Assembly (NCBI GenBank): GCA_039928945.1
Contig: JBDSSD010000123.1
Coordinates: forward strand, 1 to 64,000
DNA length: 64,000 nt
Reading direction: 5' to 3'
From: Opitutus sp.
GTDB taxonomy: Bacteria > Verrucomicrobiota > Verrucomicrobiia > Opitutales > Opitutaceae
Under the pieces are notes generated by a model. The model was not told the DNA's origin, searched no databases, and was given only the letters and a program-made list of their open reading frames with translations. This document shows, in pieces, positions 1,433 to 41,202 of this stretch; the stretch's first letter is position 1, and each line of letters opens with the position of its first letter. Both the position numbers and the translations under genes were made by a program.

Positions 1433-2479
1433 ATGAAAGCTAAGAAAGCCAAAGTGAAACCCGAGTCCGTCAACGCAACGCTGGCGGCGAAAAAAGGTCC
1501 GGTCTCACAATTCCTCGCCCATCACTATCGCCACTTCAATGCGGCGGCATTGCTCGATTCCGCCAAGGGCTACGAGACGCATCTGAAGGCAGGAGGCAAA
1601 ATGCTTGTCACGCTCGCAGGAGCGATGTCGACCGCTGAACTGGGCCTGACGCTCGCCGAGATGATTCGTCAGGACAAAGTCCACGCGATCGTCTGCACCG
1701 GCGCCAATCTTGAGGAAGATATTTTTAACCTCGTCGCGCACGATTACTACGAACGCGTGCCGCACTACCGTGATCTCACTGCGGCCGATGAGCAGTCGCT
1801 GCTCGATCGTCACATGAATCGCGTGACGGACACGTGTATTCCCGAAGGTGAAGCGATGCGGCGCATCGAAGCGGCCGTGGCGGAGGAGTGGGTGGCGGCC
1901 GACCAATCGGGTCAGCGGTTCTTCCCGCATGAGTTCATGTACAAGATTCTGCGGTCAGGAAAGCTGGTGAAGAGCTACCAGATCGACCCGAAGAATTCCT
2001 GGATGCTCGCTGCGGCGGAGAAGAACCTGCCGATCATCGTCCCGGGTTGGGAAGATGCGACTTTGGGTAACATGTATGCGGGACGCGTGATCACGGGTGA
2101 GATCAAGAATGTTCACACCGTTCGCACGGGCATCGAGTACATGGCGTGGTTGGCGGACTGGTACACCAAGACCGCGAAGCTGTTGAAGAACGGGGAAGGC
2201 TCGATCGGCTTTTTCCAGATCGGTGGCGGCATCGCCGGTGACTTCCCGATTTGTGTGGTGCCGATGTTGCACCAGGATCTTGGTCGCACGAGCGTGCCGC
2301 TCTGGGGTTACTTCTCGCAGATCAGTGATTCGACCACCAGCTACGGCAGTTATTCCGGCGCGGTGCCGAATGAAAAAATCACCTGGGGCAAGCTCGGCCA
2401 GAAGACGCCGAAGTTCATTGTTGAGAGTGACGCGACGATCGTGGCGCCGTTGATTTTCGCGTGGGTGTTGGGTCAGTGA
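1433..2479 (+). CDS. deoxyhypusine synthase-like protein (homospermidine-synthase family)
   Basis: MKAKKAKVKPES..GPVSQFLAHHYRHFNAAAL..KMLVTLAGAMSTAELGLTLAEMIRQDKVHAIVCTGANLEEDIF.. matches the DHS/homospermidine synthase NAD-binding fold. The ATG at 1433 was verified in the sequence. Confidence 0.8.
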   Translation: MKAKKAKVKPESVNATLAAKKGPVSQFLAHHYRHFNAAALLDSAKGYETHLKAGGKMLVTLAGAMSTAELGLTLAEMIRQDKVHAIVCTGANLEEDIFNLVAHDYYERVPHYRDLTAADEQSLLDRHMNRVTDTCIPEGEAMRRIEAAVAEEWVAADQSGQRFFPHEFMYKILRSGKLVKSYQIDPKNSWMLAAAEKNLPIIVPGWEDATLGNMYAGRVITGEIKNVHTVRTGIEYMAWLADWYTKTAKLLKNGEGSIGFFQIGGGIAGDFPICVVPMLHQDLGRTSVPLWGYFSQISDSTTSYGSYSGAVPNEKITWGKLGQKTPKFIVESDATIVAPLIFAWVLGQ

Positions 2480-2551
2480 GGTGAGGGGAGTGAGCGAACC
2501 CGTTGGCATTGCTCGCGCCTACCCGCCGTATTTCGGCATGTGGTTCGGAAT

Positions 2552-2576
2552 GGAGGGACGACCTCCGTGTCGTCCG
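2552..2576 (+). repeat. REP hairpin copy A1 (GGAGGGACGACCTCCGTGTCGTCCG), left flank of the RAYT
   Basis: This 25-mer has a GGACGAC/GTCGTCC stem. The same unit recurs at 3111, 4366, 9966, 10046 and 27890. Confidence 0.8.
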
Positions 2577-2603
2577 TTGCGGCGTGCGCACGCCTTGGGG
2601 CGA

Positions 2604-3095
2604 TCACGCGTGCCATCGTAACACCTCAAGCTCGCCTTGGTATTTCCACTGGTCTGGCTTTGTGACCAGTTCCGCGCGAACCGGATTATTTCGGACGTAT
2701 TCCCACTTCGCGGTGTAACTCTCTCCGACCCGCAATTGGCGGTCCCAGAAATCGCGTTGCCATAGCTTGCCCTCACCTCCTTCTCGTAACCAGCCGATCG
2801 CGCTTCTTGATTTCCACGAATGAATCCAGCGGTGCAAAGGTTCTGCGGGCAAAAGTGCGGGAGCACAGAACAGGTGAACGTGGTCCGGCATCAGAACGTA
2901 ACGGCCGACCGAGTAGTGCGAACAAGCGCGCCAGAATGATAGAAGAAGTTCGTGGAATCGGTCGGTCGCGAGGATGCGGCGACGATGGTACGTGCAAACT
3001 GTAACGAAGAAGATTGTTGCTTGGTTGTGAGTCGCCGACGAGGCCAAGTGGATCGGACGTTTGCGATCGGGGAAAAGAGACTGTTCGGCGTTCAA
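2604..3095 (-). mobile_element. REP-associated tyrosine transposase (RAYT; IS200/IS605-like Y1 HuH transposase TnpA_REP)
   Basis: The 163-aa ORF has the HuH motif (..LMPDHVHLF..) and a catalytic-Tyr region (..AKWEYVRNNPVRAELV..). It is flanked by inverted REPs at 2552-2576 and 3111-3135. The track start is TTG (3093-3095), because an in-frame TGA lies just upstream. Confidence 0.85.
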
Positions 3096-3110
3096 TGCAT
3101 TTAAGCGTTA

Positions 3111-3135
3111 CGGACGACGCGGAGGTCGTCCCTCC
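3111..3135 (-). repeat. REP hairpin copy A2 (inverted relative to A1), right flank of the RAYT
   Basis: cggacgacgcggaggtcgtccctcc is the reverse complement of A1 with one mismatch. Confidence 0.8.
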
Positions 3136-3314
3136 ACAAGAATGCGTTGATTTACGGCGGTAGCTGGAGCGGTTGAAACGAGGTTGGTGTCTTGCGCGGC
3201 CTCACAGGTCGAACTCGACCACGTCGCTCCTCGGGGTGTTTGCAAACTGCTCCAACCCAACAAACGCTTTTCAAGCCACTTTGGGTGATTCCGTTTCACT
3301 CTGGTGCTAACCCC

Positions 3315-4223
3315 ATGCCCGAGCTCCCTGACATCGAAGTCTATATCGACGCTCTGACGAAACGCGTTCTGGGGCGCCGACTCGAGCAGGTGCGGGTCGA
3401 GGATCTGTTCATCCTGCGCGCGGCCCGTCCGCCGATCGATTCGCTCGTGGGACGGCATGTGACCGCGTTCCGGCGGATCGGTAAACGAATCGCGTTCGGC
3501 TTTGAGCAGGATCGCTGGCTCGTGCTGCACCTCATGGTGGCGGGTCGACTTCAGTGGGCGGATACCGGCGCGTCGCTCGCGGCCAAAAACATGCTCGCCA
3601 CCTTGCGATTCGAAACGGGCACGCTTGCGATCACGGAAGCCGGCAAAAAACGACGGGCTTCCCTGCACGTCGTCGACGGTACCCAAGGGCTGTCCGAACA
3701 CGATCCGGGCGGGCTCGAGGTGCTCACGTGCAGTGAGCGGGAGTTCGCCGCTGCACTGACGAGCAGCAACCATACGCTGAAACGCGCACTGACCGATCCG
3801 CACCTTTTCAGCGGCATCGGCAACTCCTTCTCGGATGAGATTCTGCACCGCGCAAGACTGTCGCCCGTCGCACTGACGCAAAAGCTCTCTCCGGAAGAAA
3901 TCGGTCACTTGTTTCGAACTGGGGCCGTCGTCCTGCGCGAATGGACCGAGCGGCTCCTTGAAGAGGCGGTCGAAAAGTTCCCGGCAAAGGTGACGGCTTT
4001 CCGTCCGGAAATGGCCGTGCATGGAAAATTCGGGAAACCCTGTCCGGTCTGTGGTGCGCTCGTTCAGCGCATTGTGTATGCAGAGAACGAGGTGAACTAC
4101 TGTCCTGATTGCCAGACCGGGGGACGCATTCTCGCGGACCGTTCTTTATCGCGTTTGTTGAAAGAAGACTGGCCGCGCTCCGAGGAAGAAGCGGAAGCGC
4201 TCCGACGCCGCGTGCAGGGATGA
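3315..4223 (+). CDS. Fpg/Nei-family DNA glycosylase (formamidopyrimidine-DNA glycosylase / endonuclease VIII)
   Basis: It has the MPELPDIEVY N-terminus (catalytic Pro2/Glu3), an H2TH region and a C-terminal zinc finger (CPVCGALVQRIVYAENEVNYCPDCQ). The ATG at 3315 was verified. Confidence 0.85.
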   Translation: MPELPDIEVYIDALTKRVLGRRLEQVRVEDLFILRAARPPIDSLVGRHVTAFRRIGKRIAFGFEQDRWLVLHLMVAGRLQWADTGASLAAKNMLATLRFETGTLAITEAGKKRRASLHVVDGTQGLSEHDPGGLEVLTCSEREFAAALTSSNHTLKRALTDPHLFSGIGNSFSDEILHRARLSPVALTQKLSPEEIGHLFRTGAVVLREWTERLLEEAVEKFPAKVTAFRPEMAVHGKFGKPCPVCGALVQRIVYAENEVNYCPDCQTGGRILADRSLSRLLKEDWPRSEEEAEALRRRVQG

Positions 4224-4365
4224 TCGTGGGGGCGATCGCTCCCGCTACGGCGAGGAAGTCGTCTCACGCTGAGGTCGCAGCTCGGTAGGGCCGCAACCAA
4301 AACAGCGGAAGCATGAATTCCTCACGCAGAGTTCTCCAAGACCAAGGACAAAACCTAATTTGAAT

Positions 4366-4390
4366 GGAGGGACGGGCTCTGTCCCGTCCG
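4366..4390 (+). repeat. REP hairpin copy A3 (variant stem GGGACGGG/CCCGTCC)
   Basis: ggagggacgggctctgtcccgtccg. Compensatory changes preserve the hairpin. Confidence 0.7.
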
Positions 4391-4578
4391 ACTTGGTTTG
4401 GAAATCGAAAATCGTGTCACGCAGCGTGAAACTTTTTCCGAAGAAGCCACCAGAACCGGATTTGAACAGAAGCGAACAAAGGGAACGAAGAGTGCTTCCT
4501 CGTCGAGCGCCTCTTCGTTCTCTTTGTTACCTTCTGTAAAACGGATTGGTTTCTGGGTTTCGTCTGGATTGTTCCAGC

Positions 4579-5445
4579 TCAGTTCAAAATCTTGTACTGC
4601 TGCTTCCAACCGAGCAGCGACTTTGCGCGATCGTTAGCGATGAGGGCCTGTCGCCCGGCTAGGGGACGCTTGAAGGATTTAACTCCGGGAAGAAAGCGAG
4701 CGATCAACTCCTGCGTGGGGAGGTTGGATGATGTGTCGTCGGCGGCCAGAATTACAGGCACGCAACCGAGACCGTCTTTTTCGATCGCGAGCCGACATGC
4801 GATCCCCACATCGCGCGCGTCAATGTAGGACCACAGAATCCGCAGACGATCTTCGGGATGATCGAACCGCGCACGAACGCCGTCGTAGTCTTCGGGGCAA
4901 AGGATATTTCCGAGACGCAGCGAAATCACCTGCATGCCGGTTCGGCGGTGGAACGCTTCCGCTGTCACTTCATTGAGAACCTTGGTCAGGCCGTAGGTGT
5001 CTTCCGGAAGTTGTGGATGCGCCTCGTCGATCGGAAGGTACTTGGGTTCAAAAAATTCGGAAGCGAAGCAGATGCCGTACGATGACTCGCTGGATGCGAT
5101 CACGACCCGTTGGATGTTCAGAAGCGCGCACGCCTCGAGAACGTTGTACGTGCTGAGGGTATTGACGCGAAAGATCTCATCATTCGGCGCATCGTGCGCA
5201 CGGGGGATGGCGGCCATGTGGATTACTCCGTCGTAAGGTCGACGATCGGCGGTTCCGAACGGTGAGAAAGCGGTCACGACCTGACCGAGCTGCGTGAGGT
5301 CGGCAACAATCGTGCGGCACTGCGAAATCGTGGGGCGCCGCGTATCGACGTTGACGACTTCGTAACCTGCTTCGACGAGATGTTTGACGATCCAGTGGCC
5401 GGCTTTGCCGGAACCGCCGGTGACAAGAATACGATGGGTGGGCAT
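4579..5445 (-). CDS. NAD(P)-dependent epimerase/dehydratase-family oxidoreductase
   Basis: MPTHRILVTGGSGKAGHWIVKHLVEAGYEVVNVD contains the Rossmann GxxGxxG motif. The length (288 aa) fits the extended SDR family. Confidence 0.8.
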   Translation of the reverse strand: MPTHRILVTGGSGKAGHWIVKHLVEAGYEVVNVDTRRPTISQCRTIVADLTQLGQVVTAFSPFGTADRRPYDGVIHMAAIPRAHDAPNDEIFRVNTLSTYNVLEACALLNIQRVVIASSESSYGICFASEFFEPKYLPIDEAHPQLPEDTYGLTKVLNEVTAEAFHRRTGMQVISLRLGNILCPEDYDGVRARFDHPEDRLRILWSYIDARDVGIACRLAIEKDGLGCVPVILAADDTSSNLPTQELIARFLPGVKSFKRPLAGRQALIANDRAKSLLGWKQQYKILN

Positions 5446-5750
5446 TTTGAGCAGAGGGAGGAGGAGAACCGCGAGAAGGTGAGAGAACGGGCGCAGGTTG
5501 TCCGAGATGGCGAGCAGTTTCGAACGAATGCGCGTCGGTTCAAGTGGTTCGCTGGGACGTCGGCCACTCCGACGCAGGCGCGTATGTCACTCCGACGTAC
5601 GCCACTCGAGGTAACCCACGCCGACGTAGCCCGCTCCGGGAGGAGCGGGACCTTCGGCATCAACCGCGTCTCCATATAAAAATTTGTCCGCGCATGAATA
5701 GAATCGTGTGGCGCTCAGATCCCGCTCCTCCCGGAGCGGGCCACGTCGGG

Positions 5751-7574: not shown

Positions 7575-7664
7575 CCGCGCGCGCAAGCGCGCTGGCCCAC
7601 GGTGCGGAATACAGGTCTTCTGGAATCGGACGTAGGTCAGCGCGCTTGCGCGCGCTCACGGTGG
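7575..7664. repeat. Inverted pair of family-B GC-rich palindromic repeats (..CGGACGTAGGTCAGCGCGCTTGCGCGCGCTC..)
   Basis: 7575-7604 ccgcgcgcgcaagcgcgctggcccacggtg pairs with 7627-7664 cggacgtaggtcagcgcgcttgcgcgcgctcacggtgg. Family members recur at 25785-25811 and 33545-33576. Confidence 0.6.
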
Positions 7665-9940: not shown

Positions 9941-9965
9941 TCGGTGGATTGTGGTCTCTTCGAGT

Positions 9966-10070
9966 GGAGGGACGAGCTCCGTCTCGTCCGTCATGGTCGG
10001 GCGTCGTTGATGAGCAATCGATTTGATCGCGGATAGGCACGCAGGCGGACGACACGGAGGTCGTCCCTCC
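9966..10070. repeat. Inverted REP doublet (copies A4 at 9966-9990 and A5 at 10046-10070) in a convergent intergenic region
   Basis: ggagggacgagctccgtctcgtccg and cggacgacacggaggtcgtccctcc sit in opposite orientation about 55 bp apart. Confidence 0.75.
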
Positions 10071-10146
10071 ATTTTCGGAATCCAACCGTCGCCGTCGTTG
10101 CGTCCTCCGGGCGAGGCAAATCTCGGAATACCCTTTGAGCCGGACG

Positions 10147-14348: not shown

Positions 14349-14798
14349 GAGAGGTCTCCCAAAAGCACGGCTACGCCCGCGGTATTCCCGCGGACACGGA
14401 CATGCGGCTGCGTTGGAGCGACCGTGGAGGCACCGCGAAAGCGGGCTCTAGTGGATCACCCTTCCCATTGCCGACGAGGTTAGCTGACGGGCTTGGTCCT
14501 AGGAAGTGACCTTGGTCGCAGTTACCTGCCACCTTTCGCCCCGTCCGCGGCGTTGAGCGCTGCGGAATTTGGTTCCCCCGTGAAAACGCCGAGGAAGCGG
14601 CGTCGCCTTAGGCGGTGAAAGAACAACTTACGCCGGCGACAATGTGCGCGGGACCCGAGCCGGCAAGAGTTCTTCGGACGTTCGATGCGCAACCGATCGG
14701 TGCAACGGACACATGGCCGTTTTTTTTACGAGCAAGGTACCGCGTCCAAAAGACGAATGCAGGCTGGCCGCGGGCCGCGAGGGGGTGCAATCTACCGA
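14349..14798 (+). promoter_or_regulatory. Roughly 450-nt non-coding leader upstream of the DEAD-box helicase (possible long structured 5'-UTR, or an unannotated sRNA)
   Basis: There is no convincing ORF. Several local stem-forming segments are present. deaD/csdA-type genes classically have long cold-regulated leaders. Confidence 0.3.
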
Positions 14799-25784: not shown

Positions 25785-25811
25785 GTAGGTCAGCGCGCTC
25801 GCGCGCGCTCC
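25785..25811 (+). repeat. family-B palindromic repeat copy (GTAGGTCAGCGCGCTCGCGCGCGCTCC)
   Basis: It is near-identical to 7631-7657. Confidence 0.6.
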
Positions 25812-27802: not shown

Positions 27803-27889
27803 GCGGAACCGAATCAAACTCGGTCTCCGCCGGAAATCAAAATGTGCGGCGAGCACATGCTTCATCTGGCTGGAACCCGTGCCCGCTAA

Positions 27890-27914
27890 CGGACGACACG
27901 GAGGTCGTCCCGCC
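27890..27914 (-). repeat. REP hairpin copy A6
   Basis: cggacgacacggaggtcgtcccgcc lies between htpG and the downstream secreted-protein gene. Confidence 0.75.
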
Positions 27915-27941
27915 GCACCGAACCGCCGCGGCCAGGAACAC

Positions 27942-33544: not shown

Positions 33545-33617
33545 GGAGCGCGCGCAAGCGCGCTGACCTACGTCCGAGCGGAATTGCCGTGTAGCCCGCT
33601 GCGGGAGCAGCGGGACG
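33545..33617. repeat. Composite of a family-B repeat (33545-33576, inverted) and a family-C hairpin (GTAGCCCGCTGCGGGAGCAGCGGGACG, 33591-33617)
   Basis: B matches 7627-7657 as a 31/31 reverse complement. C is a covariant copy of 5626-5651. Confidence 0.6.
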
Positions 33618-37714: not shown

Positions 37715-38866
37715 TTACGGGCGAATGATCTCGTTCAAATGATAGTCGCCGTCTTTGAAGCCGAGGATGTAGGCGGGCTTCAACTGATCGCGCTGTTCAT
37801 TGATGGTCAAGGGCCCGCCAACGCCAGCGAGATTTCGGGTGGTGGCAAGGGCGTCGCGTATCTTTTGCGGATCGGGTCCGCCGGCTCGGGTGATCGCGTC
37901 GGCCAGCATCAGCACGGTGTCGTAAGCATCCGCGGCCACGCCATCGGGGAAGCCGGCGTAGCGCGCGCGAAAATGGCTAATGAATCGCTGCGTCTCGGGG
38001 AGTTTGGATTCAGTGCTAAAATTGTCGCAGTAGTAGGTGTTGCGTAAGGCCGGTCCTCCGAGTCTGAGGAGCTCCGGTGCCGACCAGCCGTCTCCGCCGA
38101 GAATGGGCACCTCGAGTCCGAGTTGCCGTGCCTGGGCGACGATGAGCCCTGCCTCGGTGTAGTAGCCGGGAACGAAAAGTGCGTCCGCACGGGTGGCCTT
38201 GATCGCCGTCAACTGAGCTTTGAAGTCCCGCTCCGCCGAACTGTATTTCTGCTCGACGATGATGGTGCCGCCGCCCGACGTGAACTCCGCAGCAAAAAAC
38301 TTAGCGAGTCCGACCGAATAGGCGTTCGTTGCCTCGGTGAGGAGCGCAACGCGTCTCGCGTTCAATTTCGTGCGCGCGAACTGCGCCATCACGGTGCCTT
38401 GAAAAGGATCGATGAAATGGGCGCGGAAAATATAGGTGCCGACCTGGGTCAGCTTCGGTGCGCTGCCGCTGCTGATCATCGGCACCTTGGCTTGCTGACA
38501 AATCGCCGCGGCCTCGAGAGAGCGACCGGACGATACTTCCCCGAGCACGGCCACCACCTTGTCGCGCGACAAGAGCTTCCGCACTGCGGTCGCCGATTCG
38601 CCCGGCTTGGACTGGTTGTCTTCGAACAGAATTTGAAGCGGGCGACCGAGGACGCCGCCAGCTGCATTTACGTCCTCGAGGCCGAGCCGTACTCCGCGTT
38701 CATACGATTGGCCCCAAGTTGCTTCTTTCCCGGTCAACGAACCATAGGCGCCGATCTTGATGGGCTCCGCGGGGAACGCGGTCGTGGCGAGAGCGATACT
38801 GGGAGCAACGACCAGAACGCTGCGCAACCACTGGCCGAGTGCAAAAATCCGCGGGCAGTCACTCAA
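37715..38866 (-). CDS. Liv-type periplasmic substrate-binding protein, paralog 1
   Basis: A signal peptide is followed by ..IKIGAYGSLTGKEATWGQ.. in a type-I PBP fold. Confidence 0.8.
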   Translation of the reverse strand: MSDCPRIFALGQWLRSVLVVAPSIALATTAFPAEPIKIGAYGSLTGKEATWGQSYERGVRLGLEDVNAAGGVLGRPLQILFEDNQSKPGESATAVRKLLSRDKVVAVLGEVSSGRSLEAAAICQQAKVPMISSGSAPKLTQVGTYIFRAHFIDPFQGTVMAQFARTKLNARRVALLTEATNAYSVGLAKFFAAEFTSGGGTIIVEQKYSSAERDFKAQLTAIKATRADALFVPGYYTEAGLIVAQARQLGLEVPILGGDGWSAPELLRLGGPALRNTYYCDNFSTESKLPETQRFISHFRARYAGFPDGVAADAYDTVLMLADAITRAGGPDPQKIRDALATTRNLAGVGGPLTINEQRDQLKPAYILGFKDGDYHLNEIIRP

Positions 38867-39993
38867 GGCGCGACAGTTTTGAAGAACGTCAGCTTGCCGC
38901 CTTTGATCGCAAGAATGGCCGCGGGCTTTGAGGCATCACGATTTTTGTCGATGTTGGTGACCCCCGTAACGCCGGAGAAATTCTTCGTCGCGGCGAGTGC
39001 ATCGCGCAGTTTGGGGCCGTTGGTTGAACCCGCCCGCTTGAGCGCATCAGCCAGAACGAAGGCGGAATCGTAGCCGAGGGCGGCGAACGCGTCAGGGGTT
39101 TCGTTATTCCATCGAGCCTTGAATTTCTTCACGAACGTTTGGACCGCGGCGTCCTGATTTTCAGGTGAGAAGTGGGTGGAGTAGTAGCAACCCTCCAAGG
39201 CCTCGCCGCCAATCTGCAGCAGCTGCGGCGCTTCCCAACCGTCGCCACCGAAGAACGGCACCGTGATCCCAAGATCGCGGGCCTGTCGAACGATCAACGC
39301 TGCCTCCGTGTAGTAGCTCGGAACGAAGACGGCTTCGGCGCCCGCGGCCTTGACGGCGGTGAGCTGGGCGCGGAAGTCTTTGTCGCCTTCCGAAAAGTTT
39401 TTTTCGGATACGATCTGGCCGCCGCCGGCCGTGAAGGTTTCTCGAAAAAACTTCGCGAGACCGACGCTGTACGCATTCGAAACGCTGGAGAGGACGGCGA
39501 CTTTGGTGGCTTTCAAGTCTTCCTTGGCGAACTTGGCCATCACGGTACCTTGAAAAGGATCGATGAAGCAGACGCGGAAAATGTAGTTTCCCGTTTGCGT
39601 GACCTTGGGATTGGTCGCGGCCGGAGCGATCATGGGAATTTTGTTCGCCTGTGCGACCGGGGCCGCTTCCAAGGAACGTCCGGACGCCACCTCGCCCACG
39701 AGTGCGATCACTTTATCGCGTGCGATCAGTTTCTTTACCGCGGTGGCGGACTCGCCGGGCTTGGTCTGATTGTCTTCGGTGAGCAGTTCAAACTTCTGCC
39801 CGAGCACGCCGCCCGTCGTGTTCAATTCCTCGATCGCGAGGGTCAGGCCTTTATGGGACGACTGGCCGAAACTCGCCTCTTTACCGGTAAGAGAGGCATA
39901 TTCGCCGACTTTGATCGTATCAGCGGCACGGAGGGCTAGGGCGAATACCGGCAAACCCAAAAGGGAACGGAAGAGAAGTCGGGGGAGTTTCAT
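38863..39993 (-). CDS. Liv-type periplasmic substrate-binding protein, paralog 2
   Basis: ..MKLPRLLFRSLLGLPVFALALRAADTIKVGEYASLTGKEASFGQ.. There are long near-identical blocks shared with paralogs 1 and 3 (VCFIDPFQGTVMAKFA). Confidence 0.8.
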   Translation of the reverse strand: MKLPRLLFRSLLGLPVFALALRAADTIKVGEYASLTGKEASFGQSSHKGLTLAIEELNTTGGVLGQKFELLTEDNQTKPGESATAVKKLIARDKVIALVGEVASGRSLEAAPVAQANKIPMIAPAATNPKVTQTGNYIFRVCFIDPFQGTVMAKFAKEDLKATKVAVLSSVSNAYSVGLAKFFRETFTAGGGQIVSEKNFSEGDKDFRAQLTAVKAAGAEAVFVPSYYTEAALIVRQARDLGITVPFFGGDGWEAPQLLQIGGEALEGCYYSTHFSPENQDAAVQTFVKKFKARWNNETPDAFAALGYDSAFVLADALKRAGSTNGPKLRDALAATKNFSGVTGVTNIDKNRDASKPAAILAIKGGKLTFFKTVAP

Positions 39994-40062: not shown

Positions 40063-41202
40063 TTACGGAGCGATGCTTTCAACGAACTGAAACGCGCCGT
40101 TCTTCACGGTGATGATGACCGCGTTTTTCGAGGCGTCGCGTTTTTCGTTGATCGTGATGTTACCCGTGACCGCTGCAAAATTTTTGGTGGCCGCGAGCGC
40201 ATCACGGATTTTGGCGCGGTCGGTTGAACCGGCTCGCTTGATGGCGTCGACCAGGACCAAGACCGAATCGTAGCCGAGGGAGGCATTCGAATCCGGAGCG
40301 AAGCTATTTCCCCAGCGGGCCTTGTAGGCGGAGACGAATTCCTGCACGCGCGGGGATGGATCCTGCGGCGAATAGTGCGAGCAGAGGAACGCGCCCTCCA
40401 CGGCCTTTCCGCCTAATTCCATCAACGCTTCGGCTTCCCAGCTGTCGCCGCCGAACACGGGCACGGTGATCGCGAGATCACGGGCTTGTTTCACGATCAG
40501 CGCGCCCTCGTTGTAGTAACCGGGCGAAAAGATGGCGTCCACGCCCGCGGCTTTGATGGAGGTGAGTTGGGCTTTGAAATCCTTGTCGCCCTCGGCGTAC
40601 TTCGGTTCGGCGACAACCTGCCCGCCGCCGGCGAGGAACGCTTCCTTGAAGTATTTTGCGAGGCCCACGCTGTAGGCCGAGGAGGAGCTGGAAAGAATCG
40701 CGATGCGTTTTGCCTTAAGGGTGTTGAGCGCGAACTTCGCCATGACGGGCCCTTGGAACGGATCGATGAAGCAGACGCGAAAAATATAATCGCCGATCTC
40801 GGTGACCTTCGGATTGGTCGAAGCCGGCGTGATCATCGGCACTTTCGCGCGTTGGGCGACAGGAGCGCCTTCGAGTGATCGGCTTGATGCAACCTCGCCG
40901 AGAATCGCGACCACCTTGTCTCGTGAAATCAACTTCCGGACGGCAGTGCCGCTTTCTCCCGCTTTTGACTGGGTGTCTTCAGTGATGAGCTCGAGTTTCT
41001 TGCCGAGTACGCCACCGGCAGCGTTAATGACTTCCACCGCGAGCACGGTGCCTTGATGGGATGACTGGCCGAGGCTGGCTTCCTTTCCTGTGATCGAGGC
41101 GTACTCGCCGACCTTGATTGTGTCAGACGCGGCGAAGGCCGATGAGGCGAGCAGCGCGCTGATAGAAAAGGTGCGCAGTGAACGAAAAACGGAAGACGTC
41201 AT
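40063..41202 (-). CDS. Liv-type periplasmic substrate-binding protein, paralog 3
   Basis: MTSSVFRSLRTFSISALLASSAFAASDTIKVGEYASITGKEASLGQ.. The ATG at 41200-41202 was verified. Confidence 0.8.
   Translation of the reverse strand: MTSSVFRSLRTFSISALLASSAFAASDTIKVGEYASITGKEASLGQSSHQGTVLAVEVINAAGGVLGKKLELITEDTQSKAGESGTAVRKLISRDKVVAILGEVASSRSLEGAPVAQRAKVPMITPASTNPKVTEIGDYIFRVCFIDPFQGPVMAKFALNTLKAKRIAILSSSSSAYSVGLAKYFKEAFLAGGGQVVAEPKYAEGDKDFKAQLTSIKAAGVDAIFSPGYYNEGALIVKQARDLAITVPVFGGDSWEAEALMELGGKAVEGAFLCSHYSPQDPSPRVQEFVSAYKARWGNSFAPDSNASLGYDSVLVLVDAIKRAGSTDRAKIRDALAATKNFAAVTGNITINEKRDASKNAVIITVKNGAFQFVESIAP

Follow-up and report, generated by a model that had tools for sequence, protein, structure and literature searches.

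A probable REPtron in Opitutus sp.: a RAYT gene bracketed by GGAG-tagged palindromes, with related repeats in several phyla

Introduction

To our knowledge, the pairing of repetitive extragenic palindromes (REPs) with REP-associated tyrosine transposases (RAYTs, or TnpA-REP) has been characterised almost entirely in Proteobacteria, where the tetranucleotide tag GTAG is treated as a hallmark and has been built into the rules by which REPs are found. Here we describe a locus of this type from Opitutus sp. (assembly GCA_039928945.1, contig JBDSSD010000123.1, positions 1 to 64,000; the whole of this 64,000-nt stretch is called the window below), in which a RAYT gene lies between inverted copies of a palindrome tagged with GGAG. 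We consider it very likely that gene and palindromes form a REPtron, that is, a single-copy, domesticated HuH/Y1 tyrosine transposase together with its cognate REP family.

The best described REPtron is that of Escherichia coli, in which TnpA-REP (RAYT group 2, subclass 2.2) is associated with GTAG-tagged y and z REPs and with bacterial interspersed mosaic elements (BIMEs) (PDB 4ER8; PMC3333891, PMC3479197). RAYTs of group 3, or subclass 2.5, from Pseudomonas, Xanthomonas and Stenotrophomonas, are associated with short REPs that are perfect palindromes and with REP doublets forming hairpins (REPINs) (PMC3116915, PMC8266576), and specific loop positions are essential in group 3 systems (PMC8266576). 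All class-2 (TnpA-REP) proteins share the signature Y-x3-NP (Quentin 2018, PMC6006769). Two tag classes of REPs have been published, GTAG, with its variants GYAG, GYRG, GTRG, GTMG and GTGG, and CGTC (Di Nocera 2013, PMC3733652). The REP predictor of Quentin 2018 looks for GTAG or GTGG 0-2 nt 5' of the stem and for loops of 2-5 nt (PMC6006769). The CGTC super-family is recognised by an unpaired CGTC (TGTC or CCTC), an A-T start of the stem and a CCA tail, and has no dedicated transposase (PMC3733652).

Results

A RAYT gene between inverted REPs

The gene and the copies of the palindrome found in the window are given below, with the evidence by which each was recognised.

2604-3095, minus strand: RAYT (TnpA-REP) gene, 163 aa, TTG start; profile and structure matches
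2552-2576, plus strand: REP unit GGAG-GGACGAC-CTCCGT-GTCGTCC-G; exact pattern match, fold of -6.8 kcal/mol as single-stranded DNA (ssDNA)
3111-3135, minus strand: REP unit with loop CTCCGC; pattern search, repeat finder, ssDNA fold
4366-4390, plus strand: solo REP unit with stem GGACGGG/CCCGTCC and loop CTCTGT; repeat finder, hairpin scans, fold
9966-9990, plus strand: REP unit with stem GGACGAG/CTCGTCC, left half of an inverted doublet; pattern search, fold
10046-10070, minus strand: REP unit of exact consensus, right half of the BIME/REPIN-like doublet; pattern search, repeat finder
27890-27914, minus strand: solo REP unit with tag GGCG in place of GGAG; pattern search, ssDNA fold

The 25-nt unit, GGAGGGACGACCTCCG[T/C]GTCGTCCG, stands once on each side of the RAYT open reading frame (ORF) and in inverted orientation. 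It consists of the unpaired tag GGAG, usually with a T on its 5' side, a 7-bp stem (GGACGAC/GTCGTCC) and a 6-nt loop (CTCCGT; CTCYGY as the consensus of the six window copies). Across the family the REP can be written as a 26-nt unit made of T-GGAG, a 7-bp stem that starts with GG and ends with CC, and a pyrimidine-rich 6-nt loop that is usually CTCCGT. When up to three mismatches were allowed, five sites were found in the 64 kb (2552+, 3111-, 9966+, 10046- and 27890-) against 0.00 expected from 100 dinucleotide-preserving shuffles. The sixth copy, at 4366-4390, came from the repeat finder and the hairpin scans, and its four differences all fall in compensating stem pairs or in the loop; relaxed hairpin scans of the 64 kb gave no further true copies. 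Folded as ssDNA, all six copies form the 7 bp and the 6-nt loop and leave the GGAG position free (-6.6 to -8.2 kcal/mol).

The two units that bracket the gene have their tags pointing outward, and their 27-nt arms are 96% complementary and 532 nt apart. The unit at 2552-2576 lies between a deoxyhypusine-synthase-like gene (ending at 2479) and the RAYT stop codon (2604), 27 nt past the latter, and it carries its tag on the strand that does not encode the RAYT. The unit at 3111-3135 precedes the RAYT start (3095) by 15 nt and has its tag on the coding strand of that gene. Of the remaining copies, that at 4366 is found between convergent genes ending at 4223 and 4579. The doublet at 9966/10046 also lies between convergent genes (9940/10147), 26 nt past the stop of the upstream plus-strand gene, with outward tags and a 55-nt spacer, and the region 9955-10080 can form one long hairpin (-37 kcal/mol, z = -6.07). 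The copy at 27890 stands 27 nt past the htpG stop (27942), before the next gene. Since cleavage in E. coli is lost when the tag is mutated (PMC3479197), this copy, with its altered tag, is by analogy probably a decayed one that is no longer mobilisable.

These results agree with the preliminary description of the window, which had been made from its letters only. All six copies it listed were recovered at their places, all six are intergenic on our ORF map, and the inverted arrangement around the transposase and the BIME-like doublet were both borne out. It had also claimed that stem positions vary by compensatory substitution, and this is correct because the three stem variants present (GGACGAC, GGACGAG and GGACGGG) each carry the matching change in the 3' arm and keep 7/7 pairing. 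The folding check that it proposed gave a hairpin for every unit.

The RAYT protein

The HuH motif HVHLF and the catalytic tyrosine named in the preliminary description are present as H72-V-H74 and as Y133 within Y-V-R-N-N137-P138, a sequence that carries the class-2 signature Y-x3-NP. The protein scores 91.2 bits against the NCBIfam model NF047646 (REP_Tyr_transpos; cut-off 80) and matches Pfam Y1_Tnp with 28 bits. Its best sequence match in the PDB is 4ER8, the E. coli TnpA-REP on a REP hairpin (E = 1.2e-3), and in this alignment Y133 corresponds to the catalytic Y115 and N137 to N119. An AlphaFold model made with 27 homologues (predicted local distance difference test, pLDDT, 87.3) has 4er8_A as its top Foldseek match (E = 6.8e-7, template modelling (TM) score 0.64, root-mean-square deviation (rmsd) 3.3 Å over 145 columns), followed by the IS200, IS608 and ISDra2 transposases. 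Profile, sequence, fold and signature thus support the identification as a RAYT. H72, H74, Y133, N137 and the N-P pair are invariant in the 27 homologues, and because these share only 49-60% identity with the query, the conservation seen in the alignment argues for an active enzyme under selection. The family comprises 53 clusters (50% identity) at E <= 1e-30 and 882 at E <= 1e-10. Annotation profiles already identify the protein as a RAYT, and the architecture of the whole RAYT/REP system is ordinary.

Selection on the hairpin

Covariation was measured on 127 distinct units, chosen by their tag only and not by pairing. Paired cells made up 80.7% against 57.3% in shuffles, double-sided changes numbered 213 against 77, and the covariation score was 0.523 against 0.156, a value reached by 0/500 shuffles; controls in which the pairing register was shifted gave 0.06-0.17. 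Within the stem, covariation is seen in the upper five pairs, and the two G-C pairs at the base are fixed. Across genomes the stem covaries strongly, and conservation is found in the tag, in the GG/CC pairs of the stem base and in the loop. The hairpin is therefore under selection, as had been proposed from the few window copies. Over all the DNA collected, 460 perfect units and 89 with one mismatch were counted, the loop being CTCCGT in 233 and a transition variant of it in most others, counts in which the copies, having arisen by replication, are not independent. With the same lack of independence, single mismatches are G.T/T.G in 46 cases and A.C/C.A in 14, which fits folding of the tagged strand and is the excess predicted by selection for it.

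The tag GGAG is exactly complementary to the first four loop bases, CTCC, and this complementarity is kept, or is compatible with G.T pairing (YTYY), in about 90% of the 460 perfect copies. It might be functional, as a mimic of the cleavage site or as an alternative fold, or it might merely reflect descent with transitions. The alternative hairpin GGAGG/CCTCC, which excludes the main stem, was considered and rejected: it has only 4-5 bp, is not the minimum-free-energy fold and is one pair shorter in the AG, GG and CG variants of the stem, and the covariation favours the main stem.

GGAG palindromes around other RAYT genes

Homologous loci were collected from genome or metagenome assemblies (3) and from Joint Genome Institute (JGI) metagenomes (80). 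In most of these 83 loci, GGAG followed by a 7-bp hairpin occurs within 400 nt of the RAYT homologue, and both flanks of the gene often hold arrays of two stem types in alternating orientation (L121, L122, L125, L151, L161 and others), which is the picture known from REPtrons and BIMEs. Because the rule used to extend hairpins can shift the tag register through G.T pairs and undercounts loci, a plain count of the hexamer GGAGGG was used instead. This tag is present on both sides within 250 nt in 75 of the 80 loci with enough flank, and at 7.7/kb it is about 15-fold denser in the flanks than at distances above 1.2 kb (0.51/kb). Absence of flanking copies around other RAYTs had been named beforehand as grounds for rejecting the proposed pair, and they are present. 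GGAG is the commonest tetranucleotide 5' of the flank hairpins (194 cases; the next, an unrelated one, has 28), and the loci missed by the strict hairpin rule still carry GGAGGG-tagged palindromes, imperfect ones.

In the flanks of more distant RAYT homologues (46-50% identity; L164, L165, L173, L181, L195 and L198) we observed imperfect GGAGGG-tagged palindromes, TGGAGGGCGGAGCTCTGCGACGCC and TGGAGGGGCGAGCTCCGCGAGCC. A tandem G-A mismatch can be accommodated in the former, a feature that recalls the bulged REPs of E. coli.

Distribution across phyla

When one genome per species was scanned with a degenerate 25-mer, at least 120 stretches matched. The matches listed comprise Verrucomicrobiota (48), Desulfobacterota and 'delta' (19), Lentisphaerae (13), Kiritimatiellae (10) and Planctomycetota (10), with single matches in Fermentibacteria, Armatimonadota, Thermoleophilia and Eisenbacteria. 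Among these same listed matches the two free positions of the stem nearly always complement each other; the exact variant of the window, GGACGAC-CTCCGT, occurs in Verrucomicrobiota, Lentisphaerae and Kiritimatiellae, groups of the Planctomycetes-Verrucomicrobia-Chlamydiae (PVC) superphylum, and GGACGCG-CTCCGT dominates outside those three. Since most genome matches are metagenome-assembled genomes, some of the non-PVC assignments could be binning errors; in several bins the unit was found on five to eight independent contigs. No RAYT was found by tblastn in these stretches, which are no test of the flanking arrangement because the copies in them are dispersed.

Named RAYT homologues come from Opitutaceae, Lentimonas, Coraliomargarita, Chthoniobacter flavus Ellin428, Kiritimatiellae and Planctomycetes. 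The RAYT clade thus occurs in Verrucomicrobiota, Kiritimatiellae and Planctomycetota, and the repeats also in Lentisphaerae, Desulfobacterota and other phyla. The preliminary description had taken the REP family and its cognate RAYT to be those of one lineage: the pair is supported by our results, but that range is too narrow, as the identical 25-mer is found in several phyla. The repeat is more conserved than the enzyme, with identical 25-mers accompanying proteins that are only 50-60% identical. If this holds, it points either to repeated horizontal spread of the RAYT/REP pair or to an unusually rigid code of protein-DNA recognition, and it bears on whether such pairs are strictly vertical.

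The same REP was seen in 36 stretches of predicted viral contigs (IMG/VR, L204-L239). No RAYT homologue is encoded in any of them, and they could represent prophages of hosts that carry the REP, host DNA called viral by mistake, or a vehicle of spread.

The spacer downstream of htpG could be compared among relatives. In the window (27866-27941) it holds one REP of the GGAG family; in L240/L241 (L240 9041-9386) it holds two doublets, one GTAG and one GGAG, with vapBC after them; the spacer of L242 (11843-12413) has no GGAG unit. The spacer looks like a landing zone for REPs with broken synteny, and the differences among relatives are consistent with turnover or mobility, without being proof of either.

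Other features of the window

Two further REP families, with GTAG/GTGG tags, occur in the window.

7577-7600, minus strand: second family, GTAG/GTGG-GTCAGCGCGCTYGCGCGCGC
7632-7655, plus strand: second family
25785-25808, plus strand: second family
33548-33571, minus strand: second family
5626-5649, plus strand: third family, GTAG/GTGG-CCCGCTCC-GGGA-GGAGCGGG
5721-5744, minus strand: third family
33591-33614, plus strand: third family

The four copies of the second family compare with 0 expected, and it forms an inverted doublet at 7577-7655. The third family forms an inverted doublet at 5621-5749, and its copy at 33.5 kb carries compensatory stem changes (CCCGCTGC/GCAGCGGG) and adjoins a copy of the second. 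No RAYT for these two families was found within the window. Opitutus terrae has been listed as rich in several REP families (PMC3733652), with which their presence here agrees.

Three observations concern other parts of the window. A cyclic di-AMP (c-di-AMP) riboswitch lies at 14454-14624 on the minus strand (Rfam RF00379, full-length, 53.6 bits against a gathering score of 38). A 116-nt segment occurs three times (38376-38491, 39527-39642 and 40730-40845), 63-79% identical and spaced by about 1.15-1.2 kb, which probably reflects paralogous genes in tandem or a repeated domain. A direct repeat of 32 nt at 251-282 and 354-385 (91% identical, CTTGTCACGTAWTGCGWGACAAACC) has a palindrome-like core and may be a paired operator site.

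Discussion

Our results describe a family of GC-rich palindromes that have an unpaired 5' tetranucleotide and a stem maintained by compensatory change, that form inverted doublets (9966/10046) and alternating arrays (at the homologue loci), and that enclose a RAYT gene in inverted orientation here and in 75/80 homologous loci. These are the features by which REPs and REPtrons are recognised, and they carry our reading of the locus. Several points weigh against it. The RAYT is single-copy by tblastn in a view restricted to these 64 kb; no promoter-like site was found for it; no ribosome-binding site is evident at its TTG start, which lies 15 nt from the upstream REP; and the mismatch and loop counts come from non-independent copies. 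Furthermore, no clean pair of insertion and empty site was found after htpG among the relatives compared, because these are only about 80% identical in DNA and synteny is broken.

By homology with the E. coli TnpA-REP and the IS608 TnpA, we infer how such a system might work and might still move today. The tagged strand would fold into its hairpin while the DNA is transiently single-stranded, and the RAYT would bind the foot of the stem, the loop and the unpaired 5' GGAG. H72 and H74 would coordinate a metal ion, and Y133 would cleave ssDNA nearby, forming a 5'-phosphotyrosine link. Strand transfer would then spread REP singlets and inverted doublets into intergenic DNA, and the RAYT gene itself would stay in place.

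An autonomous insertion sequence of the IS200/IS605 family, in which tnpA and two subterminal hairpins move as one unit, would share with this locus the Y1_Tnp match, the fold (IS200, IS608 and ISDra2 being the next-best matches after 4ER8) and a hairpin at each end of the gene. The profiles, however, separate the two: against the IS200 model NF033573 the protein scores 31.4, below the cut-off of 55, while it passes the model for REP transposases, and Y-x3-NP is the signature of class 2 (PMC6006769). The ends of IS200/IS605 elements lie on the same strand, whereas the hairpins here are inverted; moreover, the hairpin occurs alone at four other sites of the window and in the RAYT-free genome stretches, and no second copy of the gene is present in the window. 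We regard such an insertion sequence as very improbable. Chance similarity, or low-complexity GC-rich sequence, might be suggested by the 59.6% G+C of the window, but the excess of sites over shuffles, the covariation of the stem across genomes and the identical 25-mer in many of the genomes listed leave it a negligible probability.

The hairpins could also be primarily host elements, such as stabilisers of mRNA 3' ends, terminators or protein-binding sites, with the adjacency to RAYT being secondary. Five of the six window copies are just 3' of a gene and sense to the nearest upstream gene, the copy at 4366, alone among the six, has a weakly terminator-like T-rich tail, and E. coli REPs have been reported to act in 3' untranslated regions. 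The orientation of the window copies is treated here as chance in a small sample. A crude orientation test on 251 copies gave 72 sense and 68 antisense, no Rfam family reached its gathering threshold at any REP site, and the tight link to one protein clade would be unexpected for a host element alone. Intrinsic terminators were rejected on scanning, as only one of the three copies in 2400-4700 (that at 4366) passes a lax scan and the 3' flank of 132 copies is not T-rich. A stop-to-stop ORF test placed 150 of the 251 copies 'inside ORFs', an implausible figure and an artefact caused by spurious ORFs in high-GC DNA. A primary host role is thus improbable, if less so than an insertion sequence; a mobilised REP can also be co-opted for host function, and this is compatible with a REPtron.

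The arrangement at this locus had been called canonical, and the inverted bracketing REPs agree with that term, but the tag, GGAG rather than GTAG or GTGG, and the 6-nt loop do not. The units fall outside the GTAG super-family in their tag and also in their hairpin, which in the window and in most relatives has neither a 2-5-nt loop nor a long bulged form. They fall outside the CGTC super-family as well, since CGTC is confined to the stem interior, G-C pairs stand at the stem base and the family has a RAYT of its own. A reading of the tag as GTGG followed by AG was considered and rejected, as position -2 is rarely G (16/132 copies); the base directly before the tag is T in 303/460 copies. The string GGAG is absent from Di Nocera 2013 (PMC3733652), and in the RAYT literature searched a GGAG tag is unmentioned, bar one incidental occurrence. 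It is possible, and we put it forward only tentatively, at somewhat less than even chances, that GGAG-tagged REPs are a tag class of their own, the third after GTAG and CGTC, and have their own RAYT clade. The unlisted tag and the conservation of the repeat across phyla are modest additions to what is known.

The GGAG tag keeps A3 and G4 of GTAG, its sole change being T2 to G2, and in E. coli A3 and G4 have been proposed to select the CT cleavage site (PMC3479197). If the class is real, this natural one-base variant would make the code by which RAYTs read their guide-like tetranucleotide directly testable, and a cultured host with a close RAYT homologue exists in Chthoniobacter flavus Ellin428. 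With a GGAG tag and a 6-nt loop the family would be missed by published REP finders, and its repeats are being misannotated. Together with the AT that usually stands 5' of it, the unit can be translated from ATG-GAG-GGA-CGA-CCT-CCG-TGT-CGT-CCG to MEGRPPCRP (2549-2576 and 10046-10073). Some RAYT homologues in the databases (P0003, P0103 and P0114) have N-terminal extensions that begin with MEGRP... or hold ...MEGRA...; these are most likely spurious, being REPs translated by gene callers.

Comparison with known systems

The closest comparison is with the E. coli REPtron, with which this locus shares the HuH/Y1 fold, the catalytic tyrosine and Y-x3-NP, the gene placed between inverted REPs, a REP made of an unpaired 5' tetranucleotide and a GC-rich palindrome, inverted doublets with two stem types, and the final tag bases A and G. 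E. coli residues W94/Q95, W99, E100 and R104 correspond to W112/Q113, W117, D118 and R122. The two differ in that the proteins are 19% identical in the structural alignment, the tag is GGAG and not GTAG, the 7-bp stem is perfect and lacks the bulge needed by the E. coli TnpA-REP, the loop has 6 nt and is conserved in sequence, and the long inhibitory C-terminal tail has no counterpart beyond about residue 163.

In other respects the family is nearer to group 3, or subclass 2.5, which also has short perfect palindromes, doublets able to form a single long hairpin and a D at the position equivalent to E100; loop positions matter there and the loop is conserved here. In that group, however, the tags are GTAG/GTGG, the loops have 2-5 nt and the systems are largely confined to one order, while the GGAG unit is found across phyla. 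The IS200/IS605 elements IS608 and ISDra2 share with our locus the enzyme superfamily, recognition of hairpins in ssDNA and a guide-like 5' tetranucleotide; unlike in those elements, the ends are inverted and not direct, the hairpins are dispersed alone and the RAYT is not seen repeated. Among the families of Di Nocera 2013 (PMC3733652) the same concept is found, a tagged stem-loop that occurs singly, in head-head or tail-tail dimers or in clusters, and that lies mostly between genes which converge or run in the same direction. Within that survey, the GGAG unit does not fit the motif GGGGWSAS of TIRYT/TIRtrons and, unlike the CGTC repeats, its family has a dedicated transposase.

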